Shown here one piece after another: positions 1,439 to 40,921 of a stretch of 41,735 nt of DNA (positions within the stretch are counted from its first letter, which is position 1; every line of letters starts with the position of its first letter). Made by a program: the position numbers and the translations under genes. Source of the DNA: a virus; UHGV virus genome UHGV-1359735; one strand, 5' to 3'. The notes under the pieces are model-generated. The model was not told the origin of the DNA. It saw nothing but the letters and a program-made list of their open reading frames with translations, and ran no database searches.

Positions 1439-1515
1439 TTACCTTATTGGTAATTTATAACCATAAACGGATCAATATCAATAGTCTTGCGCATATTTTA
1501 TTACCTTTTTGGTAA
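1439..1515. promoter_or_regulatory. Two operator-like palindromes (TTACCttattGGTAA 1439-1453; TTACCtttttGGTAA 1501-1515) between P-like and DUF1064 genes
   Basis: Perfect copies; a weak minus-strand terminator (GCGC-ttcc-GCGC + T7 on minus) lies at 1527-1550 just after the P-like gene. Confidence 0.5.
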
Positions 1516-1552
1516 ACATTAAGGCGTAAAAAAACGCGCTTCCGCGCCGGTA

Positions 1553-2338
1553 TTACTTGATGAGTCCTTCTGCCTTCCCTCGACGGTATTCCTCCATCAG
1601 CCACTGTGCCGGGGTTATACCTCCGAGTGTCGCCGCGTTAGGCATGCATCCGAAGCTTCTACCTGGTGGATGGTAGGTATTGCCACCGGGGTCTGGAGGG
1701 GTGCTTATAGGCTCTGGCTTCGACTGGATGCTCAGAATCGGATCAGGTATCTGATGACCTGCAGCGACCTTTGATGCCCATTCGTCAAGAAGCTTACGCG
1801 CATGTTTCTCAACCTCAATCTCACTTAACTGACGCTGGTACATCGCGCGCCTGGTATCGCACACAATCCAGTACATGACAGGGTGGCGCCACGGGAATTG
1901 TTCTGGTCCGCCAGGCTGTAGGCTTTTCTCCTTGGCGTAGCGGTGAAATTCCCCCATCACATCTTCGATGCTCACGCCAAGCACCATCTTGCTGTCTTTG
2001 CACCACTTGATGAATTGACCTGGTGACGGCCAGAACGGTGATTCACTGGCACGGGCATGGCGCATTCCTGCTGATACCTGCTCGCGGGTACGGATACCAC
2101 CTTCGGCGAAAGCGGCGATCCACTGGCGCTTGGCGTCGGTCTCCTGCTGTGCGGTCTTAAGGTTGGTCTGCTCTGCTGCCGGAAACAGTTGCTTGAGCTG
2201 TTTAAACAGGGCATCGACAAGTCTCTCTGCGCTGATGTTCACAACATTGTCTTGCTGAGCCTGGTGATTGTCCGGACCCATCATGCGAGCCAGGGCGCCG
2301 GCATCACGATTCTGAATTGCTGCGAATACGTTACTCAT
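1553..2338 (-). CDS. Replication protein P-like DnaB helicase loader
   Basis: Strong similarity to lambda P N-terminal region (RQW.AF.E.GI.T.EQV.AGMR.AR....PF.PSPGQF..WC); ATGA overlap with upstream O-like gene; SD GGAAGGA. Confidence 0.8.
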   Translation of the reverse strand: MSNVFAAIQNRDAGALARMMGPDNHQAQQDNVVNISAERLVDALFKQLKQLFPAAEQTNLKTAQQETDAKRQWIAAFAEGGIRTREQVSAGMRHARASESPFWPSPGQFIKWCKDSKMVLGVSIEDVMGEFHRYAKEKSLQPGGPEQFPWRHPVMYWIVCDTRRAMYQRQLSEIEVEKHARKLLDEWASKVAAGHQIPDPILSIQSKPEPISTPPDPGGNTYHPPGRSFGCMPNAATLGGITPAQWLMEEYRRGKAEGLIK

Positions 2339-3102
2339 AAGAAATCCTTCCAGCCTTCAGGGCTGTTCCAGTGTGGTACTTCATCGTCAGAGCTTTCACC
2401 GCGCTTTCCTGCCGCTCTTTTTTTCCTGTTCATCAGCAGCCGGGCAAACTTCTGCTCCCACTGCACGTGTTGCATCACATTGCCTTCTGCCATCCAGTAG
2501 GTGATGAATTCGATCAGGTCTGATTTCTTGTAACCGTCAGCTGGTAGCGCATGGCCCCATGTTCTGGCGCGCATGACAAAGTCCTCTGACGGCTTCCAGT
2601 TTTCATGCATGGTGAATTTGCCAATTGGCTCTCCGATACCATCAACGACAACCGGAGGGACTTGAATTACTTCGCGCGCAGAGAGAGGGGTTTTTATTTC
2701 CCTGATCCCTGATCCCTGATCCATTCCTAATGGTACTTGTACCGTATCAGTACCGTACTCATACGGTACTAGGGGTAAACCTTTGATTTTGCTTTCTTTT
2801 GGCTTATTCACTACCTGATGTTTAAGGAAATTAGTTATGACCCCAAAATGCTTGCCATCAGGGGTGGAAAACATGGATAAATAACCACAGTTGGAAAGCT
2901 CCCGTATTAGTACCGGAATAGGAACGGATGGTTCTCGGATAGGGAAAACTGCAGCTTTGATAAGCTTCGGGTTTGCATTGAAATAGCCTTCATCATCTGC
3001 GTAATTAAGCAGACCAATAGCCAGCAAGCAGGCTGGTTCTGATACCTCTGCCATGTCTTCATCGGTCCAGAACTCAGGCTTAATGGTGCGAATGCGGGCC
3101 AT
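2335..3102 (-). CDS. Replication initiator (O-like / DnaT-domain replisome organizer)
   Basis: N-terminus MARIRTIKPEFWTDEDM typical of phage replication initiators; C-terminal DnaT-like region; contains candidate iteron origin; directly upstream of P-like gene; SD GGAGGTGA. Confidence 0.7.
   Translation of the reverse strand: MARIRTIKPEFWTDEDMAEVSEPACLLAIGLLNYADDEGYFNANPKLIKAAVFPIREPSVPIPVLIRELSNCGYLSMFSTPDGKHFGVITNFLKHQVVNKPKESKIKGLPLVPYEYGTDTVQVPLGMDQGSGIREIKTPLSAREVIQVPPVVVDGIGEPIGKFTMHENWKPSEDFVMRARTWGHALPADGYKKSDLIEFITYWMAEGNVMQHVQWEQKFARLLMNRKKRAAGKRGESSDDEVPHWNSPEGWKDFL
2697..2810. repeat. Candidate origin of replication (iterons + AT-rich stretch) inside the O-like gene
   Basis: (CCCTGAT)x3 at 2700-2720; GTACCGTA x2 and inverted TACGGTAC at 2739-2769; then AT-rich ctttgattttgctttcttttggcttattc. 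Same arrangement as lambda ori within O. Confidence 0.5.
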
Positions 3103-3311
3103 CAGATCACCTCCACGGCATTACCTTTTGAGGCCTCATGCATTAGCCGTTTTATCTCAGCATGGCGGCGGCGGTTAGTCTCGAGGGTGCATTCGACACA
3201 ATGCCCGTTGTATACCCATCGCTCACTGTCATGGCCGTGCTTACATTGCTTACCGGTGTAGTAGCGCTTTAGTCCTGCCTTTGCCGCTTCGACGCGAGTA
3301 ATGATCTCCAT
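3102..3311 (-). CDS. Small Cys/His-rich protein (69 aa), possible Zn-binding
   Basis: ATG at 3311 with AGGA SD (the ORF-track TTG start is unlikely); C..H.H...HC..C motif; ATGA overlap with O-like start. Confidence 0.45.
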   Translation of the reverse strand: MEIITRVEAAKAGLKRYYTGKQCKHGHDSERWVYNGHCVECTLETNRRRHAEIKRLMHEASKGNAVEVI

Positions 3312-3457
3312 AGTTCCTGTCTCACTCTGGTTGTGGTTACGGTAATTTTGCAGCAAGCCAAAAAAAGATCAACCGTATTTGGATAATTATTACCAAATTG
3401 GTGTACAGGGAGAGGCAGGAGCCGCCTGGGGGTGGCGGCGCGGGTGAGTTTTAAGGA

Positions 3458-3691
3458 TTAACGTTCGTGGAACCAGAGGACCAGGTCGGATTTTGCGGAG
3501 ATCCACTTACGGGATTTGCAGGCTTTAAACAGTCCTTCTAACAGAGGTTTACGTGGAATTCTTCTACGACCAGTCAGGTGAACCTGAATGTAGTGGCTGG
3601 TCGTGCCGGCGTCACTTGCGAACTCTTCACGCTCTGCCGGAGAGAGGTCCAGCCAGCAGCGTTTGAAGTCAAATTTTTGCATATCGCTCAT
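3458..3691 (-). CDS. Cro/YdaS-like HTH regulator (first gene of rightward-equivalent early operon)
   Basis: 77 aa with HTH segment SDAGTTSHYIQVHLTGRRRIP; divergent from the repressor gene across an operator cluster. Confidence 0.55.
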   Translation of the reverse strand: MSDMQKFDFKRCWLDLSPAEREEFASDAGTTSHYIQVHLTGRRRIPRKPLLEGLFKACKSRKWISAKSDLVLWFHER

Positions 3692-3730
3692 ATTTTTTTA
3701 GTCCCGGACTAACTTTAGACAGCCTGATTA

Positions 3731-3791
3731 TTACCAATCTGGTGTAAAAATCAATGACTGTTACCTTTTTGGTAAGTTTACCTTTATGGTA
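3731..3791. promoter_or_regulatory. OR-like operator cluster (3 sites) between cro-like and repressor genes
   Basis: TTACCaatctGGTGT (3731-3745, degenerate), TTACCttttGGTAA (3761-3774), TTACCtttatGGTAA (3777-3791). Confidence 0.7.
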
Positions 3792-3845
3792 ATATTCTAT
3801 TAAATTTAATCAGTTAGGTAACAATTTCAGGCTAAAAAAATAGAA

Positions 3846-4427
3846 ATGAAAAGCATCTACGACATACGACGCGACAACCTCAACGAGATAATCCGGAAGG
3901 ATTTCGATAACACGCAACTCCGGTTTGCCGAGAGATTCAAAAAATCAGCGAATCTCGTTAACAGGTGGAGCAAGGGGACAAAAAATATCGGCGCCAACGC
4001 GGCACGCGAGATCGAGTCGTTCGCCGGGAAAGGTCGTTTCTGGCTGGATATCGACCATCTGTCAGATACCCCGACGCTGCCGGAGATTATCGACCCGCAG
4101 GAATGGAGTGTGGAAAAGCAGGCAGCGTTTACCCTTGGTGTATGGATGGGACAGCATCCGGATCTGAACTCAGAGAAAAAGGTTTCGGAAGCGGCCGGTA
4201 TCGGCCAGGCGACCGTAAATCGCATCCTGAACTGCGAAGGTTCCACCAGCATTGGCGTACTGTCGGCTATCGCCAGCGCGTTCGGCCGCGATGCATATGA
4301 GCTGATCCTGCCGCCTGGTAATGCTGGTCTGATTGACTATGACCACCATGAATACGCCGGGCTGCCGCAGGAAGAGAAAAACAAGATCGCCGCCTTCATC
4401 AAGTTCATCGTCAGCCAGAACCAGTAA
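3846..4427 (+). CDS. Immunity repressor with two XRE-type HTH domains, no S24 peptidase domain
   Basis: 193 aa with two HTH-like segments (res ~20-60 and ~118-165). Divergent to the cro-like gene across the operator cluster. No SD before the ATG, so possibly leaderless like lambda cI. Confidence 0.7.
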   Translation: MKSIYDIRRDNLNEIIRKDFDNTQLRFAERFKKSANLVNRWSKGTKNIGANAAREIESFAGKGRFWLDIDHLSDTPTLPEIIDPQEWSVEKQAAFTLGVWMGQHPDLNSEKKVSEAAGIGQATVNRILNCEGSTSIGVLSAIASAFGRDAYELILPPGNAGLIDYDHHEYAGLPQEEKNKIAAFIKFIVSQNQ

Positions 4428-4482
4428 CCTCTAACCTACCTGTCACTCCTGCCGGTGGGATAACTCCCCGCGCCTCATGCAC

Positions 4483-4634
4483 TTACCAAAATGGTAAACT
4501 TTTCCTCATCAAATCTATTGACACAACCATAAATTGATCAGATTATTACCTTAACGGTAACAACAGGGCGTTAAATTACCAGAAACCCACCATCGGGTGG
4601 ATTTCTCATACCCCTGATATTTACCAAATGGTAA
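4483..4634. promoter_or_regulatory. OL-like operator cluster plus PL-like promoter
   Basis: TTACCaaaatGGTAA 4483-4497; TTGACA(4518-4523)-17bp-GATTAT(4541-4546); TTACCttaacGGTAA 4546-4560 overlaps -10/+1; half site 4576-4580; TTACCaaatGGTAA 4621-4634; hairpin CCCACCatcGGGTGG at 4585-4600. Confidence 0.65.
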
Positions 4635-4647
4635 TAGTGAGGTGTGT

Positions 4648-4797
4648 ATGCAATGGCAAATCATTAACGGCTGGTACTGCGTTACGGCATGCGGGCTGAT
4701 GAGCTGGAAGTTTCGCACGCTGCCGGAAGCAATCAGCTGGGCGTTCGTCAGCAAACTGGCAGCAAAAACGGAAATGGGTATGGGGGTGAGCAAGTGA
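4648..4797 (+). CDS. Small ORF (49 aa), first gene of early-left operon
   Basis: Not in track. ATG 4648 after GTGAGG SD; aromatic/hydrophobic; stop TGA overlaps GTG start of the next ORF. Confidence 0.3.
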   Translation: MQWQIINGWYCVTACGLMSWKFRTLPEAISWAFVSKLAAKTEMGMGVSK

Positions 4798-5093
4798 ACA
4801 TTCAGCAGATTAACAACCTGAAAAAAATCATGAACAACATCGACGGCGATTACCAGCTTAACCAGATGCTGTACGAGCGCCACGTCGAGCTTATCGACGC
4901 GATCAAGTTCCATCAGCTGCAAAAGCCATTCTACGAACTGGAGCGCAAAGGCGTGCGCAGCGAGCTTCTGGAAGAGCTGATGATGAGCTCTGAGTTTGAA
5001 GAATGCCTGGCCGCGTATCAGCGGGAACTCACCGGCATCATTGCCAAGTGGGATCTGGCTGACCAGCTGGATACGGCGAGGAACGCAGCATGA
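4794..5093 (+). CDS. Hypothetical protein (~99 aa)
   Basis: GTG at 4794 preceded by GGGGGTGAG; in frame with track ORF 4689..5093; ATGA overlap with exonuclease gene. Confidence 0.45.
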   Translation: MNIQQINNLKKIMNNIDGDYQLNQMLYERHVELIDAIKFHQLQKPFYELERKGVRSELLEELMMSSEFEECLAAYQRELTGIIAKWDLADQLDTARNAA

Positions 5094-5989: not shown

Positions 5990-5998
5990 GGAGAAAAC

Positions 5999-7021: not shown

Positions 7022-7071
7022 CACCACCACCGCGGCGCGCCCGGCGCCGCACTGAAAAAAGAGAGGTAACG

Positions 7072-7320
7072 ATGAAAGGTGCATTAGGCAAAAAGGAACT
7101 GCTGGCGGTGGTGCCTGTATCGATGAGCACTATCGACCGCATGGAGAAAAACGGGGAGTTCCCGAAGCGTTTCTGGATCACAGACAAGCGCTGTGCCTGG
7201 AACAGCGAAGAGATCGAGCGCTGGCTGGATGAACGTCAGCAGAACGGCACAACGGAGTTTGCTGGAAAAAAGCCTCCGGTTGAGCAGCGAGTATTTCGCC
7301 CGGTTGGTAACGCGGCGTGA
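7072..7320 (+). CDS. AlpA-family HTH regulator / excisionase-like
   Basis: 82 aa; LLAVVPVSMSTIDRMEKNGEFPKRFWITDKRCAW matches the AlpA/MerR-like phage excisionase family; GAGAGG SD. Confidence 0.7.
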   Translation: MKGALGKKELLAVVPVSMSTIDRMEKNGEFPKRFWITDKRCAWNSEEIERWLDERQQNGTTEFAGKKPPVEQRVFRPVGNAA

Positions 7321-7429
7321 CGTCGCTGGCGAGGTACTGGGAAAGGTGGTCAGGATGGTTTCTGTACCTGGCCGCCGTATCCGCCTGGCTGTTCCTGCTG
7401 GCGGTCATTTTTCGAGAGGGTTGGATACG

Positions 7430-7723
7430 ATGAATCGGATGGAAAAATACCACGCGGATTATGTCTCTCAGCGCAAAGCGCCCCCTCTTGTCGCCGTAAC
7501 GCCGGCGGCAATGGAGATCGAGCAGCGCGCTATTGCTCGCGAGAACAAAGGCCAGTACCGCCTGGCCGCTCGCCTCTGGCTTGAGTGCATGGATGCGGCC
7601 ACTGGCGAGGTTGAGCGGGCCCGTATCGCTATACGCCGAGATCAGTGCATTGGCCGCGGGAACCGGCTTCGCCAGGGATGCTATGCCGGGATCTGCGCCA
7701 CAGCCGGGGTGATTTATGACTAA
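7430..7723 (+). CDS. PerC-like transcriptional activator (98 aa)
   Basis: ATG 7430 after GAGAGGG SD; motif A.RE..G.YRLAARLWLECM resembles PerC/ANR family proteins common in enterobacterial prophages. Confidence 0.45.
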   Translation: MNRMEKYHADYVSQRKAPPLVAVTPAAMEIEQRAIARENKGQYRLAARLWLECMDAATGEVERARIAIRRDQCIGRGNRLRQGCYAGICATAGVIYD

Positions 7724-10599: not shown

Positions 10600-10890
10600 T
10601 CTGACGGTACGAGAGTATACCGTAATGGTAATACCGTCAGGTATACCGTCAAAAAATGTGAGATAGAGTGAATAGTGTTGAAGTGATATAAAGAAAAACC
10701 CTCTGTAAAAACAGAGGGTTGCATTTCAATTTGAGTAGATATGATTAGCTATAAGGTAGCCGTTAATCATTCCCACTCAATTATTTACAGCACTCGTAAC
10801 CAATTGACTGAAAACAAGTTTATGAAACGATAAATTCTGCGTACCGTTTTATATACCGTCACCGGGGAACAGTACCATGAAAAATACCAT
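10600..10890. other. attP-like region: arm-type direct repeats flanking a central hairpin
   Basis: TATACCGT/ATACCGTC x3 at 10616-10650; GTACCGT and TATACCGTC at 10841-10860; GTACCATG/ATACCATG at 10872-10892; central hairpin AACCCTCTGtaaaaaCAGAGGGTT at 10697-10720; immediately 5' of int. Confidence 0.55.
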
Positions 10891-12765: not shown

Positions 12766-14106
12766 ATGGTAATAGTAGATACCATCACCATGTCAACCAT
12801 GAACTATTTTGAATTCATCTGGTCAATTGAACATTGCAAACCGAAATTAAGAAAAGAGATGAACAGAAGAGAAGCGGTTTTAGTAACCGGAAAATCTATA
12901 TTATCTATATACTTAAGCTCTTTGATATGGCCGATAAAATCCTTCGCATCGCAGTCTGGCATTCTTAACGTTGCTGACTTTGGAGCAACAGGAGACGGAA
13001 TAACAGACGATTCTTATGCTTTTCAAAAGGCATTTATTAAGGCAAGTGAATCAGGTGGTGCGAAAGTTTACTTTCCGAAACCCAAAAAAGAATATTTGCT
13101 GAAGTTCCCGGTATTTATCTTTAACAATACCGAAGCATATGGCGACGGTAAAGATACGCGAATTGTTTTCGAGAATCCGGTGTTCAGTAAGGGCCGCGGA
13201 GGGTTCGTTATAGGTTCAAGCCTGGAGGCAAACAGAGATCTGGCGCTAACAAGGTTCAGTAACCGTTCATTGTCCACGACGATCAACCAGAACTTCAAGA
13301 ATCCAGTCCAACGGCACTACATACGTGATACGCCAGAGTTGGCCCAGGCGAAAGGAAGTAGCCTACACGATATCTATCTGGAGGCGAGATTCACTGCTGG
13401 CTCAGAAAGCAACTGGGGCGGGTACGGCATTAATTTCGTAAACGCCATTGACTGTCATGCTAGCAACATATGGGGGAAAGGGTGGACGCAGCTTATTGGA
13501 ATGGGCTCTGACACTCCGCCAGAAACACCATCAAACCATAATTGCAGCGCAAAGAATTTGTATGTTCTTGAGCCTGATATGGTCAGGACATATTACTCAA
13601 TAGGGTTCATGGCTAACTCAAGTAATTGTACTATTCAGAATGCAAAACAACTTAAGGCCATGACTGCTGGAAGTAAGAACGGCAGTGGTGTTGCGTTGAA
13701 CTTTTGCGAGGATTGTATTGTTGCAGATATAGATATACCAGACCTGGGAAGAACTCAAACATCAGAGGGGGTTCTTATAAATAATTCGTCTGGTTGTTTG
13801 ATTCAGAACATAAACATCGGCAATGCGAAAAAAGCCGTGTCAACATTCTTTAAATTCAAAGACACTCAAAAGGAATTTAAACCTAATATGATTAAGAATG
13901 TATTGGGTTCAAATTGCGACATTGTATTGTCTGTATACTCCAAATTTAACATCATAAGAAACATCAAGGGTGATAATTCTGGACGAGTTATAGCCTTGAT
14001 GAATACTAATGCAGCGAGAAATGTTATAAGTGCTCCTGAGGCGGATATCTCCACCCCAGGGAAAGCACCGATTACTACATTAATGAAGCTTAATAAAATC
14101 GAGTAA
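12766..14106 (+). CDS. Secreted/anchored right-handed beta-helix protein (pectate-lyase-3-like glycan hydrolase or lyase)
   Basis: NVADFGATGDGITDDSYAFQKAF hallmark of the pectate_lyase_3 / tailspike-like beta-helix. N-terminal hydrophobic signal/anchor (MNRREAVLVTGKSILSIYLSSLIWPIKSFAS). Low GC. Start uncertain: all candidate ATGs have weak SD. Confidence 0.6.
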   Translation: MVIVDTITMSTMNYFEFIWSIEHCKPKLRKEMNRREAVLVTGKSILSIYLSSLIWPIKSFASQSGILNVADFGATGDGITDDSYAFQKAFIKASESGGAKVYFPKPKKEYLLKFPVFIFNNTEAYGDGKDTRIVFENPVFSKGRGGFVIGSSLEANRDLALTRFSNRSLSTTINQNFKNPVQRHYIRDTPELAQAKGSSLHDIYLEARFTAGSESNWGGYGINFVNAIDCHASNIWGKGWTQLIGMGSDTPPETPSNHNCSAKNLYVLEPDMVRTYYSIGFMANSSNCTIQNAKQLKAMTAGSKNGSGVALNFCEDCIVADIDIPDLGRTQTSEGVLINNSSGCLIQNINIGNAKKAVSTFFKFKDTQKEFKPNMIKNVLGSNCDIVLSVYSKFNIIRNIKGDNSGRVIALMNTNAARNVISAPEADISTPGKAPITTLMKLNKIE

Positions 14107-15339
14107 TCATTCTATAGCGCGATGGCGACCATCATCGTCATCGCGCTGACTGTTAACTGCAACAAAGAAGATTAGTGCAGGAATACTAATCCAGAACGTA
14201 GATATATCAACAAACATCCCTGATGCTATAAACGCAAGGAGAAGCGGAAGACTTTCTGAATTGTTCTTGTAAACGCAGTAGCACAGAGACACAAGCATCC
14301 CCACGTACAAAGCTAAACCAATAATGCCTGTTTCCAGCAATGATGATATGAACACGTTATCAGGCACGATGCCGTACTTATCAGTAGCCATGCGATAACC
14401 AACGCCAAATATTGGATTTTCCCCAAGAATATCAGGAACTGAGGCCCAGGTAGCAAGTCGGCCAGACGTGATATCAATCTGTCCAGATCCGGTAATCCTA
14501 TCCAGCAAGGCAATGATATAATCATTACTAATTCCGTAAGTGATAACACCAGCGCCGATAGCTGCGAAAAACAGCATCTTGAATACGCTAAGGCTTCTTG
14601 TTCTTATTAAATCAAAGAATACATATACAGCCAGCGCAAAAACCAAAGTTCGCGTAAGTGAAATATAGATGTTAAACACAAGGCCAAGCAGTATCAAAAT
14701 GTAAAGTATTTTGCTTTTGCTGGTATGGCGAAGACCAATAAGCGATGCCACGCCAAGAATCAATGCAAGACTACCATACGCACTGGAATCATTAGCGACA
14801 CCACCTGCCCTGTAAATGTAACCCATTCCAGGATAGCTAAACCTTTGCTTCGCAACAAGGATGTCCATTTGCATGAACCAACCCCAAGCCGCCTCTATGG
14901 TAACGACAAAGAAAAGGAAAATGAAAAAACGATAGACGGTTTTCCTTTGCTCTTCAGAAAGCTTATTAATAAACGCGAAAACTAAAAGCGCTGGAAAGTA
15001 CATTTCAAGAAGTCTGACATATCGAAGAAATGATGACTCATGATCTGCCAGTTTATCGTAGGTTAGATAGCTATACGCTATACCTGCCACGATCCATGAC
15101 GCCCACAAAAAGAACATAAATAAAACAGATAATTTCTTTTTATCTATTGTTTTTCTTGTCATTGCAAAAACAGCAAATGAAATAATAATAAATGGAATCG
15201 CTGGCTCTAGCCCAGATATACTACCACGACCAAAAGGCACTAGCGTTATTATTGCAAGTGCAAATAGATATAGCCTAATGGCAATATCATCATATTTAAA
15301 TTTACTTCTCAATGTGTGTAGCCCTCTTAAGCGCCACAA
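14107..15339 (-). CDS. Wzy_C / O-antigen ligase-family polytopic membrane protein (putative O-antigen polymerase)
   Basis: About 10-12 TM helices; periplasmic-loop motif RITGSGQIDITSGRLATW typical of Wzy/WaaL family; low GC. Confidence 0.7.
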   Translation of the reverse strand: MWRLRGLHTLRSKFKYDDIAIRLYLFALAIITLVPFGRGSISGLEPAIPFIIISFAVFAMTRKTIDKKKLSVLFMFFLWASWIVAGIAYSYLTYDKLADHESSFLRYVRLLEMYFPALLVFAFINKLSEEQRKTVYRFFIFLFFVVTIEAAWGWFMQMDILVAKQRFSYPGMGYIYRAGGVANDSSAYGSLALILGVASLIGLRHTSKSKILYILILLGLVFNIYISLTRTLVFALAVYVFFDLIRTRSLSVFKMLFFAAIGAGVITYGISNDYIIALLDRITGSGQIDITSGRLATWASVPDILGENPIFGVGYRMATDKYGIVPDNVFISSLLETGIIGLALYVGMLVSLCYCVYKNNSESLPLLLAFIASGMFVDISTFWISIPALIFFVAVNSQRDDDDGRHRAIE

Positions 15340-18069: not shown

Positions 18070-18167
18070 AGTCTGCTCCAGTGGTCAGCGCTGGCGCGCG
18101 TGAATAGAAGCATTCTATTACCCATCAAACCATATATGAATAAAACAGATCGAAACGAGCAAAAACA

Positions 18168-18182
18168 TTACCATTAAGGTAA
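18168..18182. promoter_or_regulatory. Operator-like palindrome TTACCattaaGGTAA in the divergent tailspike / Ant-C-paralog region
   Basis: Perfect copy of the dispersed motif; a half-site lies at 18207-18211. Confidence 0.55.
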
Positions 18183-18256
18183 ATAAAAACCTTCTGGAAA
18201 ACCCTGTTACCTTTTGATATATGTATATATATACAGTATTTATCGGAGTAATCCTA

Positions 18257-18517
18257 ATGCCAGAGCGGTACCAGTATCCTGTCGACGAAGGTTTTGCGGA
18301 TCGTATTCACACCCCGGAAGGGGTCAGATCCCTGGTTGTAAAATCACAGCTGATGGAGTTGCTCAGGGAGATGGAGCGAGACGGCCACGATGTCAGCGGT
18401 GCGGCGGCGGAACTGGTGGCACTGGTTAACTATGTGACAAGCTCGCAGCTGTCGATGCGGGAGCTGCAAACACACCTGGATTTCTGCGCAATGCAGATTA
18501 GACAACATTTAAAGTAA
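18257..18517 (+). CDS. Small protein homologous to the C-terminal domain of the Ant antirepressor (86 aa)
   Basis: ATG 18257 after GGAG SD; about 50% identity to the C-terminal ~75 aa of the 20051..20740 product (IH.P.G.R.L..S.M.LLRE...DGHDVSGAAAE). Preceded by an operator and a LexA-like box. Confidence 0.5.
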   Translation: MPERYQYPVDEGFADRIHTPEGVRSLVVKSQLMELLREMERDGHDVSGAAAELVALVNYVTSSQLSMRELQTHLDFCAMQIRQHLK

Positions 18518-19582: not shown

Positions 19583-19768
19583 TTAATCACCCATAGTATG
19601 TGTAGTAATAAAAATAATTTATGTAACTTTATTGGTTAGAATCACATTGGTAAATATCAACACCAAAAAATATACTAGAACTATGTTTAGGATTGTTCTA
19701 TATGCACATAAAAAAAAGCGCAAAACAACTCATAAAGAGATTGATTTTACTTAATAAACAAAATAAGA

Positions 19769-19783
19769 TTACCAAAATGGTAA
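19769..19783. promoter_or_regulatory. Operator-like palindrome TTACCaaaatGGTAA plus promoter upstream of ant
   Basis: TTGATT(19741-19746)-17bp-TAAGAT(19764-19769) promoter directly abutting the perfect palindrome. Confidence 0.55.
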
Positions 19784-19874
19784 ATTTACAACCCATTTCC
19801 CTTGTGCCATAGTGATCAGGCATCGGCAAAATCCGGTGCCGGGATTGGCGTCCCGGATAACTAAACGGCGCACA

Positions 19875-19898
19875 ACACGCGCACTGCGTGTTTTTTTG
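19875..19898 (+). terminator. Intrinsic terminator in the ant leader
   Basis: ACACGC-gcact-GCGTGT stem-loop followed by TTTTTTT, about 100 nt downstream of the ant promoter/operator and ~150 nt before the ant start. Confidence 0.55.
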
Positions 19899-20050
19899 TG
19901 CACGCGCTCTGACGCACCTATCCAATGGTGGGCTGGGCGGGGGTCCGAAAGGACGCCGGTATCCGTTTAGGCCGGTACGCCAACTCCGTTCAGTTCACCA
20001 CCAGTAATTGGCGTTGCGGTGGTGATAACTCTACTAAGCGGGGTATCACA

Positions 20051-20740
20051 ATGAACACCAAACCTTCCATTTTCAATTTCGAATCAGACTCAGCTATTCG
20101 CGCCATTATGATCGATGGCAATCCTTGGTTTTTTGCATCCGATGTTTGCCGCGCGATTGGCATCGCAAACCATCGTGATGCAGTTCGCAAACTTGATGAT
20201 GACGAGAAGGGCGTCGGCTCAACCGACACCCTTGGTGGTGAGCAAGAATCAGTTATCATCTCCGAGTCTGGCCTCTACACTCTTATCCTCCGCTGCCGCG
20301 ATGCGGTGACGCCGGGCACCATCCCCTACCGCTTCCGCAAATGGGTAACCAGCGAGGTGCTGCCGCAGATCCGCAAGACTGGCCGCTACGTTCGGGAAGA
20401 ACTCTCCCAGGCTGATAAAGCCCGCATGCTGGCGCAGGAGATGACCAGCAGCATGTTGCCGGCGATCATGGATGCATTGCAGATCGAGCAGAAGCACTAC
20501 ACCTTCCCTCTTAACCGACGCTATCAGGATCACATCCATTCACCTGATGGCCTGCGTGAACTGGCGAAAAGCTCAATGGTGATGAAGCTGCTCCGCGAAC
20601 TCGATGCTGACGGGCATGATGTGTCCGGCGCCGCCGCAGAGGTCACAGCTATGCTCAGCTACATTGTTGGTATCGGCGCCGTACTGCGCGACATAGAGAC
20701 GCATGCTCAGTACGTGATGGCTAAAGCCAAGGGTTACTGA
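20051..20740 (+). CDS. ant: Antirepressor (BRO-N/Ant family)
   Basis: Starts MNTKPSIFNFESDSAIRAIMIDGNPWFFASDVCRAIG..., the BRO-N domain typical of Ant antirepressors; track ORF 19925..20740, probable start ATG 20051. Confidence 0.75.
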   Translation: MNTKPSIFNFESDSAIRAIMIDGNPWFFASDVCRAIGIANHRDAVRKLDDDEKGVGSTDTLGGEQESVIISESGLYTLILRCRDAVTPGTIPYRFRKWVTSEVLPQIRKTGRYVREELSQADKARMLAQEMTSSMLPAIMDALQIEQKHYTFPLNRRYQDHIHSPDGLRELAKSSMVMKLLRELDADGHDVSGAAAEVTAMLSYIVGIGAVLRDIETHAQYVMAKAKGY

Positions 20741-20803
20741 GGCTGCTGGCGCAGGGAAGCGCCTTTAAAATAATTCTTGACGGACTTCATGGGTGGCTTA
20801 AGA

Positions 20804-20818
20804 TTACCGTATTGGTAA
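20804..20818. promoter_or_regulatory. Operator-like palindrome TTACCgtattGGTAA upstream of moron operon
   Basis: Preceded by TTGACG ... TAAGAT promoter-like elements; TAAGATTACC junction identical to the ant promoter. Confidence 0.5.
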
Positions 20819-35473: not shown

Positions 35474-35475
35474 CG

Positions 35476-35781: not shown

Positions 35782-37457
35782 TGCGTCACCGCCGGCTGCT
35801 GAGCAGCATCAGAGAGGGTTTTTAACAGGCTAGGGTCAGCGGTGTTGGTATCGCTCAGGGTCTTAGCGGTTGCGCCAGCTTGCTGGGCCATAGCCATCAT
35901 CTGCTGCTGCTGCTCCATTTGAGCACGCTGCTCGCGCGTAGCTTGCACCTCATCATCAGAGTTAACGATCGTGGCCGGGACGCCGAGCATATTTCCGTAC
36001 TCGTCAATCGTCTGGTCGATATTGAGTTTGTCGAGCGCCGCAGGATTGGCTTTTGCAAGATTCCCAACAAAGCCAACAAAGCGCTCTACGCTGCTGATCC
36101 CTATGGATTTTTGGGCCTGTGCCAAAATGGATACATATTCAACTTTCAAAGGAGTGCCCTGCAGTTCTTCCGGTGGCTCAGGAAAGAGGTTGCGGCGCGC
36201 CATGATGTTGAATGTGCGATCAACGAAAGGATCAAGGAATTCATCATTAAGTCGCTCAAGAACTGGGCCAAGCTGCAGGAGTTTCTCATCCTGCATTGCG
36301 GCCACAGCTTCCACTGGCATGCTCCTGGTGTTGATGGTGCTGAACAGGTTAAACAGGTCAGAGAAGAAGCAGGCTTCAATCATTTGGCGGTCATCAGCAA
36401 TACTGCCGAGCATGTCATTAAGCTGCGGGCTGACGGCGTAAGCCGGACGCACTAGCTTGGTAGCATCAACCTCATCGACATAAGTAACTCCGCCAGGGGC
36501 AAGGTTGATCAGCTTATTTTTAAGACCTGTCGGGGCCACCATTGGCGGGTTAACAAGCTTATCGATCGCGTTAGCTTTGCGAATTTGCTCCAGCTGCAGC
36601 GCCTTACCAGTACCGAGCGCCATCATTCCCGGGCAGTTACTCCCGTAAACGTCTTCCCCGTTAATCTCCCAGCGCGGTGAAAGGATCGGCGGCTCATCAA
36701 AACCAGCCTCCCGAAGAAGCTTGTCACCGTCTCCTGACAACTCGAAATACACCGATTTGAATGCCTTGTTGCGGGAGTTCAGCTTGCCATTCACACGATC
36801 GATATTGGGCTCTGTCAGATGGACCACATCGAACCATGCTTCATAGTTCGCGTTATCCCAGGCGCCGCGCACGGCGTTACTGACATTGTCCAGGCCAAAC
36901 TGCATAACAATCTGGCGGGCAGTCATGGAGAAAACGCGATACGTGGTATCGACTGACAAACGATGCGAGTTTGACAGGTAGTAACTTCCGATCGGCAGAG
37001 GATGAGTACGAATCACATCTTCGTCGTCTTCGAGAACCGCCATAGCCGCGGTACCAAAAACACCAAGGTGCCGGTAGATAATCGGCAGGGACTGGTAGAC
37101 GTTAGAGCGGTTCATGACGTCGTTCATCCTGGTCATGACCACATCAAGCCAGCGTTTTACCGGTCCATATTGCATCATCTCCGGATCCGGCGTTGCCAGC
37201 TTAAACCATGGGCGGGTTGGGCTGGTGATACCTGACAGCATGCCTGATTGCAGAGTGCGGGCAGCTTTGGAGGCGGTAGGGTCAACGATGCGGGTATTAC
37301 GCTTGCTGCCGTTGTTTCTCTCCGTCGTAAGAAAGCGCGTGCTGCGCGGATCAATAAATTCCGCCAGTTCGCGCCAGTGCTCCTCAAAGCTGGTGCGCTC
37401 ATTTTTGAGCTGCCCCAGGTGTTTGAGGTAATGCTGTTTCGGAGAGAGTTCGGCCAT
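35778..37457 (-). CDS. Portal (head-to-tail connector) protein, T7 gp8-like
   Basis: 559 aa; motifs PWFKLATPDPEMM...YGPVKRWLDVVMTRMNDVM and a Q/A-rich C-terminal tail resemble the podovirus head-tail connector family. Confidence 0.8.
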   Translation of the reverse strand: MAELSPKQHYLKHLGQLKNERTSFEEHWRELAEFIDPRSTRFLTTERNNGSKRNTRIVDPTASKAARTLQSGMLSGITSPTRPWFKLATPDPEMMQYGPVKRWLDVVMTRMNDVMNRSNVYQSLPIIYRHLGVFGTAAMAVLEDDEDVIRTHPLPIGSYYLSNSHRLSVDTTYRVFSMTARQIVMQFGLDNVSNAVRGAWDNANYEAWFDVVHLTEPNIDRVNGKLNSRNKAFKSVYFELSGDGDKLLREAGFDEPPILSPRWEINGEDVYGSNCPGMMALGTGKALQLEQIRKANAIDKLVNPPMVAPTGLKNKLINLAPGGVTYVDEVDATKLVRPAYAVSPQLNDMLGSIADDRQMIEACFFSDLFNLFSTINTRSMPVEAVAAMQDEKLLQLGPVLERLNDEFLDPFVDRTFNIMARRNLFPEPPEELQGTPLKVEYVSILAQAQKSIGISSVERFVGFVGNLAKANPAALDKLNIDQTIDEYGNMLGVPATIVNSDDEVQATREQRAQMEQQQQMMAMAQQAGATAKTLSDTNTADPSLLKTLSDAAQQPAVTQ

Positions 37458-37460
37458 GGA

Positions 37461-37679
37461 TTACGCCCCGAGCAGGGTCTTACCCTGAGTACCGCCAGAA
37501 GGCTGCGTTACACCCTGGCTCGACGTCAGGATTGTTGATTTCTGCCCGCCCGCTGCGGCACGGCGACGACGATCGCTATCGGCGGCGTTCTGTACAGCAG
37601 AATCGGAAACCTGCGGCGCCGCCTGAACCTGCGGAGAACTCACTTTCGGCTTGCTGATGCACATTTTGCTGCGCTCCAT
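37461..37679 (-). CDS. Small Gln/Ala/Ser-rich protein (72 aa) upstream of portal
   Basis: ORF with weak SD; first gene after the 37756 operator on the minus strand. Confidence 0.35.
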   Translation of the reverse strand: MERSKMCISKPKVSSPQVQAAPQVSDSAVQNAADSDRRRRAAAGGQKSTILTSSQGVTQPSGGTQGKTLLGA

Positions 37680-37755
37680 ACGCGTTTAAATTATTACCAA
37701 TTTAACCACATATAATTTATTTGTCGTAGTGTATTGACCTTTTGATGATAAATTA

Positions 37756-37770
37756 TTACCTTTTTGGTAA
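37756..37770. promoter_or_regulatory. Operator-like palindrome TTACCtttttGGTAA (with degenerate copy at 37694-37708)
   Basis: Perfect copy between the portal operon and the ORF-free region; TTGACC at 37734-37739 lies upstream. Confidence 0.5.
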
Positions 37771-38083
37771 ACACAACATGAAAGCGCACCCCATTCCCTT
37801 CCATTGGTGGCTTTGTCGTTACTCAGATGGCGGAGTGCGCTTCCAGGTGTGAAAGCATCCGGCGTATGGCACATGCGTCGATAGCGGTCCGGGGGCTCCT
37901 TGGTACATGGCCCAGCGGGTAGCCGGAATGTGCAAGCCATGCCATGCATGCACGACAGCGACTCACCATCGTGGCGGTACGGTGTGACACCTCGGAAGAG
38001 ACGAGGATGCAACGATGAGAGCATTGGCGGAAGCAACGCCTCCCTCGCCGGGTGGTCCACTGTGGTAATCAGTGCTCTCTTCG

Positions 38084-38198
38084 TTGTGGTTAGCTCAGGA
38101 ATTGGTTAGAGCTCCATCCATGCTTGCCATTGCTGCATGGGCGGGTAATGGGTTCCGAAAGGATCGCCGCGCCGGTTGGAATCCGGCACCACAACCCA
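38084..38198 (+). ncRNA. tRNA-like element (non-canonical) inside an ORF-free region
   Basis: Acceptor 5' strand TTGTGGT (38084-38090); D-arm GCTC-aggaattggtta-GAGC (38093-38112); T-arm GCCGG-ttggaat-CCGGC (38171-38187); acceptor 3' strand ACCACAA + C + CCA (38188-38198). But 58 nt separate the D- and T-arms, containing a 6-bp stem CCATGC/GCATGG and GGTTCCGAAAGG. Confidence 0.35.
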
Positions 38199-38242
38199 AT
38201 CACACCTCAGGACCGTGATACCCGTAGTTCCAGTGCAAGTTT

Positions 38243-38284
38243 GGCGGTGGCAGTTATTCCCTTTCTGACCACCGCCATTTTTAC
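38243..38284 (+). terminator. Intrinsic terminator ending the ORF-free transcript
   Basis: GGCGGTGGCAG ... CTGACCACCGCC stem followed by ATTTTTAC. Confidence 0.55.
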
Positions 38285-38366
38285 AGCAGGACGCCATTGC
38301 GATGACTTCATGCTGTAAACCCTGTGACACCCAGCCAAGGACGGCACTTTCCATCATCCCTGTTTC

Positions 38367-38392
38367 GCCCGGTTCGTCCGGGCATTTTTTTT
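38367..38392 (+). terminator. Strong intrinsic terminator 17 nt upstream of the gp49-like gene
   Basis: GCCCGG-ttcgt-CCGGGC followed by ATTTTTTTT. Confidence 0.7.
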
Positions 38393-38408
38393 AAGGTGAG
38401 ATTAGACT

Positions 38409-38786
38409 ATGAGTGACAAAGACATTGAATCTGAAATTCAGGCTAAAGGCTTAACGGCGCCGCGCGTTACGCCCAACCATATCGAAAGCATTATTGCCAG
38501 CGAGCATTACTTCACTGGCTCTGATGGTGTACTGGGTGCCTACAAAAACAACGATGACGTTTACGTTGGCAGCGCACCTAGCGATAAATCCGTACGGTCT
38601 TTAGATTTGATTACCTTCTGTGTCCTGGTGCTTCAAAACGGCTTCACCGTCACCGGTGAAAGCGCCTGCGCCAGTCCTGAAAACTTCGACCCTGAAATCG
38701 GACGTAAGATTGCCCGTGAAAATGCGGTAAATAAAATCTGGATGCTGGAAGGTTACCTGCTGAAGCAGAGACTGAGCGAAAAATAA
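38409..38786 (+). CDS. Hypothetical protein (125 aa), possibly phage Gp49/Sf6-gp66-like family
   Basis: AAGGTGAG SD; opposite strand to the late operon; followed by a terminator; family assignment from memory only. Confidence 0.5.
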   Translation: MSDKDIESEIQAKGLTAPRVTPNHIESIIASEHYFTGSDGVLGAYKNNDDVYVGSAPSDKSVRSLDLITFCVLVLQNGFTVTGESACASPENFDPEIGRKIARENAVNKIWMLEGYLLKQRLSEK

Positions 38787-38805
38787 CACCGTGACATGTC
38801 ACAAT

Positions 38806-38831
38806 AGCCCGCCGATGCGCGGGCTTTTTTT
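38806..38831 (+). terminator. Intrinsic terminator after gp49-like gene (abuts TerL stop)
   Basis: AGCCCGC-cgat-GCGGGCT followed by TTTTTTT; preceded by GTGACATGTCAC palindrome at 38791-38802. Confidence 0.65.
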
Positions 38832-40305
38832 ACGCCCACGGGTCGTACTCGCTGATCACGTTGGGCTGCTTGCCGCCGGCAGCGGGGAAATCTGAACGCT
38901 TCGCCACTGGATAGGCGAACGTCAGAAGCAGCGCATCGCCCTTGCCCGGCGACCGACCCAGACGCTCTTTGATATCCTCTTTCGGCTCCATGACGATCTT
39001 ACCGTCTACCCTCACCTTGTACTCTGCCGCTGACAGATCATCCGCCGTCTCCTGGTCGTCCAGCGCGCCGCCGAGCTTGAGCCACGTCTTGCAGGCGTTG
39101 AACATCTCTCCGCGCTTATTCAGCATCTGAGGATCTGCCGATGCGCCGCCGAACGGCACAAGCTGCCAGGTGCGACCCCAGCCGTCACCGATGGACTTCA
39201 GCCCGGTACCGTAGCCGAAGTCGATAAACACCGCATCAGCCTGGTACTGGTCCTCAAAATCAGCGATACGCTTCGCCATAATCAGATCGTCGGTGGTCTT
39301 GTTGCCGGTCCACAGCACTTTGCTGTGCAGTCCCTGGCGGAAATAAATCACTGCATCATCCACGCCGGAATATGCTGGGTCGACGCCGATTATCCGCGGG
39401 GCGTGCGCCACCTGCGCAGCGGTCACAACGCGCTTCATCGCCTCATCAGTCAGCCCGGTAGGGATGAACTGCAGCTCCGACGCATCAGGGAAGATCCCCC
39501 GCACGCGGACCTTCACAAAGTCGCTATCCTCGCCGTAGTCATCGACCCATTTCTGCAGCTGCTGCTTGTTGGTGCCTTCGACGGTGCGGCTGTCGATTTG
39601 CGCGCACTTCCAGCGGTGCTTGTATTTGCGGAAGCACTCCCGGAATCGCCCGGTGTTGCGCGTCGGGTTACCGAACGCCACCCAGATAATTTCGGTGTCT
39701 TCGTCCGTCAGCGCGCCCTCGGCAACTTCCCAGACAAGATCTGCGATGTTGGATGCTTCGTCGAACACCACAACGATGCGCTTACGCTCGTTGTGCAGGC
39801 CCGCAAACGCCTCGGTGTTGTGCTCAGACCAGGGAATAGCATCGGCGCGCCAGCGTTTGTCGTGGCCCGGATCGTTGCTGTACATCGCGGTGGCTGTGCA
39901 GGTGAACCACTCTTTCGTGATAGCCAGGTTCGACCATTTGATGATTTCCGGCCAGGTCTTCGTGCGCAGCTGGTTGTCGGTGTTAGCGGTCACCACCACC
40001 TTGCAATCTTCACAGGTGGACATGGCCCAGTTAATCAGCATCGAGATGAAAGCAGATTTACCGATACCGTGACCGGAGGCCCGGGCAATCATCAGCGGCT
40101 GGTGACGTGTCGCGGGATTCTGCAGGTGCTCGCCTATCTCGCGGAATGCGTCAGCCTGCCACTGTCGCGGCCCGGAGGCGTGCGCCAGTTCTGTGCCATC
40201 CTCGCCCCACGGGAACGCATACAGCGCATAGCCCAGCGGGTCATGGGTGAAGCTGGCGATATCGTCGATCAGCTGTTCTTCCGGGGATAAAGCGGCGTCT
40301 GTCAC
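38830..40305 (-). CDS. terL: Terminase large subunit
   Basis: 491 aa; Walker A-like GHGIGKS; acidic nuclease motifs; GTGA-coupled to TerS; GGTGGTGA SD. Confidence 0.85.
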   Translation of the reverse strand: MTDAALSPEEQLIDDIASFTHDPLGYALYAFPWGEDGTELAHASGPRQWQADAFREIGEHLQNPATRHQPLMIARASGHGIGKSAFISMLINWAMSTCEDCKVVVTANTDNQLRTKTWPEIIKWSNLAITKEWFTCTATAMYSNDPGHDKRWRADAIPWSEHNTEAFAGLHNERKRIVVVFDEASNIADLVWEVAEGALTDEDTEIIWVAFGNPTRNTGRFRECFRKYKHRWKCAQIDSRTVEGTNKQQLQKWVDDYGEDSDFVKVRVRGIFPDASELQFIPTGLTDEAMKRVVTAAQVAHAPRIIGVDPAYSGVDDAVIYFRQGLHSKVLWTGNKTTDDLIMAKRIADFEDQYQADAVFIDFGYGTGLKSIGDGWGRTWQLVPFGGASADPQMLNKRGEMFNACKTWLKLGGALDDQETADDLSAAEYKVRVDGKIVMEPKEDIKERLGRSPGKGDALLLTFAYPVAKRSDFPAAGGKQPNVISEYDPWA

Positions 40306-40886
40306 TGGTCACCACCCTGGTGTTCTTTCAGGCGGCGCCGGGCGGCGGCCATGCGGTCGGCAATTGTGACGTTCACGTTAACTTCCATGCGCTCTTTGAA
40401 CGCGTTAACGTCGACGTGCTTACCGATTAGCTCGAGGTTCTTCACCTTGTCGGGCCATTTTATTTTCTTGAGGATGGTCTCTATCGATGTCTCATCCATG
40501 TTCATGATGGTTGAGGACAGGTCAAACCCGCTGAGCGTGGTTCGCCAGATTTTCGGCCACTCGCGGATAGGCTTCAGGCTGCCGTCATCGTTCAGGATAT
40601 CCAGCACGTCCATCTGGTCGATTTCCACCAGGCGCAGCAGCACGTAATCGGCGCTGACGCGCAGGCGCTTGTTGCGCTCTTCCATGAGCTCAGCGATTCG
40701 TTTCTGGATACGCTCATCACGCATCATCGTGCTGGCTTTGACGTGGGCAGACTTTGGGGAAAACCCGGCATTGATGGCCGCCTGCGTCTGATTTTCAGGG
40801 CATTTCACATACTCCTGGGCGTAGGCTTCCTGCATCACCGTCAACGGTTTGTACTGAGTTGATTTGCGCTTCGGATCCTTTGGCAT
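40302..40886 (-). CDS. terS: Terminase small subunit
   Basis: Probable ATG 40886 (GGGGTG SD; track start GTG 40895). N-terminal HTH-like segment MQEAYAQEYVKCPENQTQAAINAGFS typical of Terminase_2-type TerS. Confidence 0.7.
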   Translation of the reverse strand: MPKDPKRKSTQYKPLTVMQEAYAQEYVKCPENQTQAAINAGFSPKSAHVKASTMMRDERIQKRIAELMEERNKRLRVSADYVLLRLVEIDQMDVLDILNDDGSLKPIREWPKIWRTTLSGFDLSSTIMNMDETSIETILKKIKWPDKVKNLELIGKHVDVNAFKERMEVNVNVTIADRMAAARRRLKEHQGGDQ

Positions 40887-40906
40887 GGTAAACACCCCGA
40901 AAATAA

Positions 40907-40921
40907 TTACCCTTTCGGTAA
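40907..40921. promoter_or_regulatory. Operator-like palindrome TTACCctttcGGTAA immediately upstream of terS
   Basis: On the minus strand a TATTAT -10-like hexamer directly precedes the palindrome; no good -35 (activator-dependent late promoter?). Confidence 0.5.

Follow-up and report, generated by a model that had tools for sequence, protein, structure and literature searches.

The palindrome TTACC-N5-GGTAA as the probable, dispersed operator of the lysogeny repressor Rep in an epsilon15-like Klebsiella phage

Lysogeny in the Salmonella phages SPC32H and epsilon15 (genus Uetakevirus) is governed by a switch composed of a repressor, Rep, and an antirepressor, Ant. Rep reportedly is not cleavable by RecA and is inactivated by the antirepressor, and the Rep tetramer is said to pair DNA-binding domains that come from different dimers. 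Here we describe UHGV virus genome UHGV-1359735, a stretch of 41,735 nucleotides (nt) referred to below as the window, in which the palindrome TTACC-N4/5-GGTAA recurs between genes of the early and the late regions, and we compare its arrangement with that of the SPC32H and epsilon15 switch. According to PMC9638917 (citing Kim 2016), it is as a tetramer that SPC32H Rep contacts palindromic DNA, and a tetrameric Ant breaks this Rep tetramer; PMC9986798 describes the Rep tetramerisation domain as a p53-like ‘TetDloop’ fold, which is associated with DNA looping. In phage ZX5, overexpression of the repressor lowered holin and endolysin transcripts by more than 99.9% (PMC9782041). The GenBank record of epsilon15 (AY150271.2) carries seven protein_bind features, labelled ‘repressor / lysogeny’ and with the sequence ATTACC-N5-GGTAAT. 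These are located before terS (12-27), before gp3/portal (2931-2947) and before the tailspike gene (19895-19911), with three more between the repressor gene and gp37 and one after the replication genes. Rep as the bound protein, its tetrameric state and its release by Ant are taken from this annotation and literature, while motif statistics, placement, synteny, conservation and the homology of Rep and Ant were established in the present analysis.

A megablast search placed the window among Klebsiella phages of the epsilon15 type, with 95-98% identity to ST512-KPC3phi13.3, Kp4865-1 and BUCT711 over large parts and approximately 80% identity to epsilon15 over the conserved genes. Transfer of the epsilon15 coding sequences by tblastn revealed that the window is collinear with epsilon15, albeit reverse-complemented and permuted. 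We conclude with high confidence that (A)TTACC-N5-GGTAA(T) serves as the operator of the phage’s own lysogeny repressor, which is by homology the ortholog of Rep of SPC32H and epsilon15. The sites very probably correspond to the operators already known from the epsilon15/SPC32H Rep-Ant switch, carried here by a Klebsiella member of the genus. They are not new in kind, as dispersed sites of this type are annotated in epsilon15 and form part of the characterised SPC32H switch.

The palindrome, its conservation and the immunity region

A pattern search of the 41.7-kb window for TTACC-N{4,5}-GGTAA returned 12 perfect copies (Table 1). This is the number given in a preliminary description of the same DNA, and only one position, 3777, had to be corrected, to 3778. 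Eleven of the copies have a 5-nt spacer, and the one at 4621 is the sole copy with a 4-nt spacer. The rarity by chance that had been put forward (about 0.1 copies) is confirmed by 100 dinucleotide shuffles, which contained 0.03 copies on average and never more than one. The 12 copies are also, as stated before, without exception intergenic, on a curated gene map in which intergenic DNA accounts for 8.8% of the window (P ~2e-13). A position weight matrix (PWM) was then built from 59 perfect sites of six related genomes. In the relatives, a scan of which had been proposed earlier, the palindrome is present in 8-11 perfect copies per genome at the same positions (epsilon15, 11; SPC32H, 10; phiV10, 8; Tyrion, 9; ZX5, 10). 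Scores of the eleven N5 copies in the window range from 19 to 29 bits, compared with a mean shuffle maximum of 6.2 bits, and a value of at least 8 bits is reached at 16 window positions versus 0.33 expected.

Weak PWM candidates, apart from the eleven N5 copies, are located at 3731, 3807, 10617, 4620/4621, 10745 and 3390. Six degenerate or half copies had been listed previously, and two of these, at 3731 (11.2 bits) and 3390 (5.3 bits), are indeed full-length sites with two mismatches each. The remaining four (4576, 18207, 19649 and 37694) are single half-sites, among which only that at 37694 is conserved, being invariant in six genomes. Alignment with relatives showed no conservation of those at 4576 and 18207, and the density of lone half-sites in intergenic DNA is only about twice that in coding DNA. 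These two were therefore taken as chance occurrences and dropped as operators. The 19649 half-site is, on the basis of the roughly twofold enrichment, provisionally treated as chance as well.

Each of the seven sites annotated in epsilon15 is matched in the window by a perfect copy at a syntenic position, the one at 4621 with its 4-nt spacer. For phylogenetic footprinting, six syntenic intergenic regions were aligned across six genomes. Outside terS, the remaining five regions have 5-bp arms with little or no variation, and the spacer and most of the flanks vary; the terS alignment displays a similar pattern with no fully invariant column, because its epsilon15 row stops before the site. Arms that are fixed around a freely varying 5-bp spacer and flanks are the signature of a dimer-binding site and not of a recombination scar. 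More distant Rep homologs, with 42-54% identity, were found in Serratia, Citrobacter, Enterobacter and an unassigned phage contig (L071-L074), and their loci were subjected to an unbiased scan for all 5-mer palindromes with 3-7-nt spacers. TTACC-N5-GGTAA ranked first in all four, and the 61-62-bp pairs and the terS-proximal copies are kept as well. Within the sequences compared, the association of the Rep family with the palindrome is invariant, which hints that the epsilon15-like group as a whole has one operator specificity and possibly shares cross-immunity.

The rep gene encodes a helix-turn-helix (HTH) protein of 193 amino acids that matches SPC32H Rep (PDB 5D50_A) over its full length (E=1e-74, residues 1-192) and is 64% identical to epsilon15 gp38. 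Many invariant residues of its N-terminal domain are retained in homologs down to 43% identity. A Pfam scan of Rep identified HTH_3 only, with no S24 peptidase (autocleavage) domain. The full-length match and the lack of an autocleavage domain agree with the SPC32H type of repressor, in which the N-terminal DNA-binding domain is followed by a C-terminal domain for tetramerisation and Ant binding. Motif clusters lie on both sides of rep, as had been observed, with 3731/3761/3778 (the first of these degenerate) on one side and 4483/4546/4621 on the other. It is this clustering, together with the single or paired copies before other operons, that supports the earlier assignment of the motif as a repressor operator.

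On the PR side, a PR-like promoter (TTGATT-16-AATAAT, 3754..3727, minus strand) is overlapped by the degenerate operator TTACCAATCTGGTGT, the position of which is conserved in six genomes. The two perfect PR-side operators have the 17-bp spacing that is also seen in epsilon15 and SPC32H. On the other side, the PL promoter (TTGACA-17-GATTAT, 4518-4546, 10/12 matches) has the same geometry in six genomes. In the alignment, the third PL-side operator, at 4621, has lost 1 nt of the spacer that epsilon15 and SPC32H have, and the resulting 4-nt spacer would probably weaken Rep binding. This third operator is absent from phiV10, Tyrion and ZX5. Between it and the PL operator, the leader contains a stem-loop (4587-4600, plus strand) in which CCACC-ATCG-GGTGG is followed by ATTTCT. 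The stem-loop is conserved, being present in epsilon15 and SPC32H too, and may represent a pause or attenuation signal.

A further pair of operators, 62 bp apart, is located after the replication genes. The layout is the same in all six genomes: a terminator is followed by an operator, a -35 element TTGAnA, an 18-nt spacer and a -10 element TAAATT that overlaps the second operator. In the window, this promoter is TTGATA-18-TAAATT (1481..1452, minus strand), and the sequence GGTAAA(AA)TCATG is conserved at the 1439 site. When the spacing of adjacent operators was measured in the six genomes, 62 bp was found in 11 of 17 cases, with single or few instances of 63 bp (one), 17 bp (three) and 76 bp (two). 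In approximately half of the sites, the first operator base coincides with the end of a -10-like hexamer, the overlap being its last T or, in one case, its last two Ts.

Solitary operators, late promoters and the antirepressor modules

Beyond these clusters and pairs, copies precede terS, the portal operon, the tailspike/ant region, a Bro-N antirepressor module and an accessory-gene promoter, in agreement with the placement described before. The first base of the terS operator is the final T of a conserved extended -10 element, TGGTATTAT (TGnTAYTAT). A rho-independent terminator is located directly upstream of this site in phiV10, Tyrion and ZX5, and the same is true of epsilon15, at the end of its linear record. 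As the terminator directly precedes the site in these relatives, an independent terS promoter under Rep control is plausible. An antisense promoter-like site at terS (TTGGCA-16-AATAAT, 10/12) was set aside, since its -35 element is degenerate in relatives; it is a probable by-product of the conserved start-codon region and the AT-rich operator flank. A UmuD-like gene (40944-41273, minus strand; phrog_3469, E=5e-47) is inserted in the window between the gp49 homolog and terS, and occupies the spot of the rho-independent terminator that precedes terS in phiV10, Tyrion and ZX5 and stands at the record end in epsilon15. It is accompanied by a perfect LexA box at ~41294-41313, which on the strand of the gene reads TACTGTTTAAATATACAGTA, and by a promoter-like site, TTGACT-17-TACTGT.

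The portal operator forms the 5' edge of a conserved block of ~110 nt. Exactly 62 bp from it lies the conserved half-site at 37694, next to a portal promoter candidate, ATCATA-17-TAATTT, which is weaker and was read by eye from the alignment. Our own inspection of the alignment also revealed a promoter-like site on the opposite strand, TTGAC(A/C)-17-TACCTT (window 37733-37761, plus strand; L003 ~2925-2965, minus strand), with its -10 element inside the 37756 operator. It points to tRNA-Arg in SPC32H, phiV10 and ZX5, and to the gene at 38409-38786 in the window. The tRNA-Arg of these three phages adjoins the portal-upstream operator, and a tRNA scan of the window found none. An int-alpA RNA (Rfam, 44 bits) is present near the terL-portal region of Enterobacter phage Tyrion (L006 2605-2669, minus strand) and not in the window.

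In the divergent region between the tailspike gene and ant, the operator likewise forms the upstream edge of a strongly conserved block, and a conserved GGTAA half-site abuts the -10 element of the likely tailspike promoter, where the motif CATATATGGTT is located 40 nt from the operator centre. The ant gene is divergent from the tailspike gene, and its position is syntenic with those of epsilon15 gp19 and SPC32H ant. An intact LexA box, CTGT-N8-ACAG, precedes ant in epsilon15, SPC32H, phiV10, Tyrion and ZX5; the LexA-like box of the window lies at the aligned position and has CAT instead of CAG in one half. Kp4865-1, ST512-KPC3phi13.3 and BUCT711 have the same variant and, as it is common to these three Klebsiella relatives, we regard it as a feature of the Klebsiella clade. 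In SPC32N, constitutive expression of Ant reportedly results from a single change in the ant LexA box.

A second, palindrome-like motif, CATAT(A/G)(T/A)GGTT, is found in the conserved block beside the operator. It lies downstream of the Rep operator in the portal and tailspike regions, and its distance from the operator centre is 52 nt at the portal site (6/6 genomes), 40 nt at the tailspike site (four genomes) and 43 nt at the epsilon15 lysis cassette, and it may act as a late-promoter or activator site. The motif also occurs in the lysis-cassette and cro-gp40 intergenic regions, and is a full 14-bp palindrome, AACCATATATGGTT, at the lysis cassettes of phiV10 and Tyrion. In the window, genes for a pectate-lyase-like protein (12766-14106, plus strand), which may be another depolymerase or tailspike, and for a Wzy-type O-antigen polymerase (14107-15339, minus strand) fill the slot of the epsilon15 serotype-conversion genes. 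This insertion eliminated the operator and most of the conserved second motif upstream of the lysis cassette.

Upstream of int, a TTACC-N5-GGTAT variant is present at ~45-55 nt in all six genomes (L003 26882 and equivalents). The variant abuts a TATAAT/TATACT hexamer and sits among ATACCGTCA repeats that are annotated in epsilon15 as integrase sites. The copy at 10617 could thus be either a weak Rep operator for the int promoter or a mere likeness to Int arm-type repeats.

At 19769, the operator and a promoter with the sequence TTGATT-17-TAAGAT have one base in common, the last of the promoter and the first of the operator, and a second promoter-like site, TTTACA-17-CATAGT (19785-19813), starts directly after the operator. 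Between this operator/promoter region (19741-19813) and an open reading frame (ORF) with a Bro-N domain lie an isrK-like RNA, which includes a terminator-like site (19874-19892), and a C4 antisense RNA. The C-terminus of the Bro-N ORF resembles epsilon15 gp19, and its called start is probably too early, as the ORF overlaps the C4 RNA. The order operator-isrK-C4-Bro-N is also found in phiV10, Tyrion and ZX5. Given this module besides ant, the window possesses two antirepressor modules. The promoter-operator cassette of the 20804 type precedes different genes in two Klebsiella relatives.

Table 1. Operator copies, promoters, genes and RNAs of the proposed Rep regulon in the window (positions of the whole stretch unless another genome is named)
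Feature	Position	Strand	Remarks
Perfect palindrome copies, start positions	1439, 1501, 3761, 3778, 4483, 4546, 4621, 18168, 19769, 20804, 37756, 40907		pattern search
Proximal operator of post-replication promoter	1439..1453	.	overlaps -10; holds Shine-Dalgarno of DUF1064 gene
Distal operator of post-replication promoter	1501..1515	.	just after terminator-like site 1548-1533, minus strand
Cro-like gene, 77 amino acids	3458..3691	-	first gene of rightward early operon; 66% identity to epsilon15 gp39; phrog_35 transcriptional repressor
Degenerate operator	3731..3745	.	across spacer and -10 of leftward PR-like promoter; PWM 11.2 bits
Operator between PR and rep	3761..3775	.	syntenic with epsilon15 33358 and SPC32H 34407
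Operator between PR and rep	3778..3792	.	17 bp from 3761 copy; matching alignment column invariant in six genomes
rep, lysogeny repressor	3846..4427	+	homology
Distal PL operator	4483..4497	.	63 bp upstream of PL-proximal operator
PL-proximal operator	4546..4560	.	starts at last T of -10
Third PL-side operator (N4)	4621..4634	.	in leader, just before gp37; pattern search
One-mismatch variant ATACC-N5-GGTAA	10617..10631	.	42 nt upstream of int; PWM 10.2 bits
Likely tailspike promoter TTCATA-17-TAGAAT	18112..18140	-	in block conserved across six genomes
Solitary operator, tailspike/ant divergent region	18168..18182	.	syntenic with annotated epsilon15 site 19895-19911
LexA-box-like sequence before ant	18220..18239	.	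ATGT-N8-ACAG on plus strand (CTGT-N8-ACAT on other strand)
ant, small SPC32H-type antirepressor	18257..18517	+	PDB 5D50_E, E=2.9e-32; 60% identity to epsilon15 gp19
Operator at promoters of isrK/C4/Bro-N antirepressor module	19769..19783	.	
isrK-like small RNA (Hfq-binding)	19820-19896	+	Rfam gathering-level, 80.2 bits
C4 antisense RNA	19921-20005	+	Rfam gathering-level, 66.4 bits
ORF with Bro-N domain and Ant-like C-terminus	19925..20740	+	Pfam, residues 58-147
Operator at accessory-gene cassette promoter (phrog_10654, DUF2335)	20804..20818	.	TTGACG-16-TAAGAT at 20777-20804
Half-site GGTAA	37694..37708	.	conserved; beside -10-like element of likely portal promoter, in invariant stretch TTAAATTGGTAATAATTTAA
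Solitary operator upstream of gp3/portal operon	37756..37770	.	invariant in six genomes; syntenic with epsilon15 2931-2947
terS operator	40907..40921	.	12 nt upstream of start codon; syntenic with annotated epsilon15 site 12-27
CATAT(A/G)(T/A)GGTT copies	37711, 18135	-	also L003 2991, 19943 and 24754; more in L004-L007

A model for Rep action and its alternatives

From the arrangement of the sites we infer repression at each of them, looping, and direct control of the late operons. In a lysogen, Rep would occupy the three sites on each side of rep, thereby controlling the divergent PL and PR promoters and probably that of rep itself. It would further bind the 62-bp-spaced pair that brackets the post-replication promoter, and the single sites at terS, gp3/portal, tailspike/ant, the isrK-C4-Bro-N promoter and the accessory-gene promoter. 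At those promoters where the operator lies at the -10 end (PL, post-replication, 19769, 20804 and terS), the most likely effect of Rep is to keep polymerase from binding or from forming an open complex. Where two operators are 62 bp (about six helical turns) apart, one Rep tetramer most likely holds both of them with the DNA looped in between; it is the 62-bp spacing, combined with a tetrameric Rep, that points to such cooperative looping. Induction would not involve cleavage of Rep. Instead, Ant, once relieved by the SOS response, would remove Rep from all operators at once.

Several observations weigh against this account. A scan of six genomes identified no sigma-70-like promoter that faces the late genes and overlaps the portal or the tailspike/ant operator. 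The earlier notion that copies abut a -10-like hexamer and hence overlap transcription starts therefore stands for PL, the post-replication promoter, 19769, 20804 and terS, and was rejected for the portal and tailspike/ant sites. The best late-promoter candidates are found 40-60 bp downstream of the portal and tailspike operators and, counted from these candidates, the operator centre lies ~70-80 bp upstream of the estimated start. Repression at these two promoters would thus need looping to the half-site or interference with an activator. Given this distance, direct repression of the late operons is no more than plausible; the sites expected from the proposal that one repressor silences these operons are in place, whereas those of portal and tailspike stand off the likely promoter. 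Nor does the palindrome accompany nearly every promoter, as had been claimed: the site search found no operator at the lysis cassette of the window or in the wzy and umuD-like upstream regions, and only weak variants in the int and cro-gp40 regions. Part or even the whole of the set of sites may also be used by the Cro-like protein. Finally, the search for covariation of repressor and operator yielded none, since the half-site never changes and is constant in all homologs down to 42% identity.

An explanation that would do without promoter operators is that the sites act as stoperators, blocking elongation inside transcription units in the manner of the L5 gp71 sites. The dispersal through early and late regions is stoperator-like, and particular copies could be read in this way: 4621 is part of the PL leader, 40907 is situated downstream of the umuD-like gene and ahead of terS, where the window has no terminator, 1501 directly follows a terminator, and 1439 covers a ribosome-binding site. 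However, a stoperator is an asymmetric 13-mer that is recognised by a monomer, is oriented in line with the direction of transcription and loses its function when reversed (PMC9283540). The window sites are perfect palindromes of 5+5 bp with a 5-bp spacer, they have no orientation, and the PWM displays no consistent asymmetry in spacer or flanks. Moreover, the homology of Rep predicts a tetrameric HTH protein as their reader. About half of the sites abut a -10 element, starting at its last base, and they number only 12-16, with most short intergenic gaps having none. Because the sites are palindromic, because Rep is a tetramer, and because of this position at -10 elements, we do not count them among the stoperators, to which the preliminary description had likened them. 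Elongation block as their general function is very unlikely, and a roadblock role may be considered for 4621 and 40907.

It is also very unlikely, in our estimate, that a factor other than Rep, such as the Cro-like gp39 homolog or a late activator, is the main reader of the palindrome, leaving Rep with the rep-adjacent copies only. Cro-type proteins normally share operators with the repressor, the palindrome centred ~70-80 bp upstream of the estimated portal and tailspike starts is in an activator-like position, and the early left operon does encode PerC-like (7421-7723) and AlpA-like (7072-7320) regulators. Yet the late-region copies cannot be told apart in sequence from those flanking rep (25-29 bits with the PWM), the epsilon15 record labels all of them as repressor sites, and the second palindrome, CATATRWGGTT, is nearer to the late promoters and a better candidate for an activator site. 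One could finally view the repeats as promoter or module-junction sequences that were kept by mosaic recombination, with the palindrome itself being read by no protein. The position of sites at module boundaries would be in line with this, as would the cassette TTGACGGA...TAAGAT-TTACC..., which precedes different cargo genes in two Klebsiella relatives. We consider it extremely improbable, however, as nothing but the 5-bp arms and the distance between them stays constant in the alignments, with free variation in the 5-bp spacer and the flanks, and as the arms persist in loci with a Rep of only 42% identity.

With the palindrome taken as the operator of Rep, the observations can be joined into a more detailed and tentative scheme, which we think possible and not yet probable. 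Rep would silence the whole genome in a single layer, through DNA architecture as well as occlusion. Micro-loops of 62 bp would form at PL and at the post-replication promoter, and the solitary late operators would pair with promoter-proximal GGTAA half-sites (at a distance of 62 bp for portal), shutting promoters that otherwise depend on CATATRWGGTT. The isrK/C4-Bro-N antirepressor, itself controlled by Rep, would add a feed-forward step to induction by Ant. Since Rep homologs of down to 42% identity have the identical operator, the phages and prophages of Klebsiella, Salmonella, Escherichia, Enterobacter, Citrobacter and Serratia that carry them would form a single immunity group across genera.

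Assigning the repeat to a known and structurally characterised repressor/antirepressor switch allows the regulatory map of a Klebsiella prophage to be drawn by homology, including the promoters that are off in the lysogen and how the SOS response turns them on. The accessible literature leaves several testable details unstated: adjacent operators keep a strict 62-bp phasing, terS has an extended -10 promoter under an operator, the operators at late promoters sit upstream and next to a second palindrome, and the operator does not vary across the family. Residual interest also attaches to a second antirepressor that, judged by its sequence, would be Rep-controlled and RNA-gated. These details bear on the prediction of induction and cross-immunity among Uetakevirus prophages, which are common in clinical Klebsiella.

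Comparison with known systems

The stoperators of L5 and other cluster A phages number more than 20 per genome; these 13-bp asymmetric sites, each read by a monomeric repressor that has two DNA-binding domains, depend on orientation and block elongation (PMC9283540). The window shares with these phages a single immunity repressor and sites that are spread across early and late regions and are always intergenic. A closer likeness in architecture is found in lambda cI, where palindromic operator clusters also flank the repressor gene on both sides, the early promoters are divergent and the repressor oligomerises. In the epsilon15-like phages, the fixed 62-bp phasing likewise suggests cooperative binding. 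Unlike in lambda, the Rep operators extend beyond the immunity region, and Rep has no S24 domain.

Phage P1 provides a precedent for one repressor with many operators spread over the genome of an enterobacterial phage. Its immI region, reportedly laid out as c4-icd-ant, resembles the isrK-C4-Bro-N module of the window, in which a promoter that is probably under repressor control leads to a C4 antisense RNA and a putative antirepressor gene. Late genes of P1 are controlled indirectly, through Lpa. The P1 repressor C1 has 22 dispersed operators, which are asymmetric 17-mers (PMC8546580). These are thus asymmetric where those of the window are palindromic, and C1 is unrelated to Rep. With the C1 operators of P1 and, at the level of public annotation, the seven repressor sites of the epsilon15 record, the preliminary description’s view that such an arrangement was without a described example among enterobacterial podovirus-like temperate phages does not hold.

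The greatest likeness is to epsilon15 and SPC32H themselves, with which the window shares orthologous Rep and Ant, a collinear genome, an identical operator at syntenic sites and, in a variant form that is only LexA-like in the window, a box before ant. The differences are confined to individual elements. The window phage has Klebsiella as its host, and it has extra operators at the accessory-gene promoter and at the isrK-C4-Bro-N module, both absent from epsilon15 and SPC32H and the latter present in phiV10, Tyrion and ZX5. Compared with epsilon15, it lacks the lysis-cassette site, and its third PL-side operator is one spacer base shorter. One half of its ant LexA-like box is off consensus, unlike in both phages, and a umuD-like gene replaces the terminator that precedes terS.

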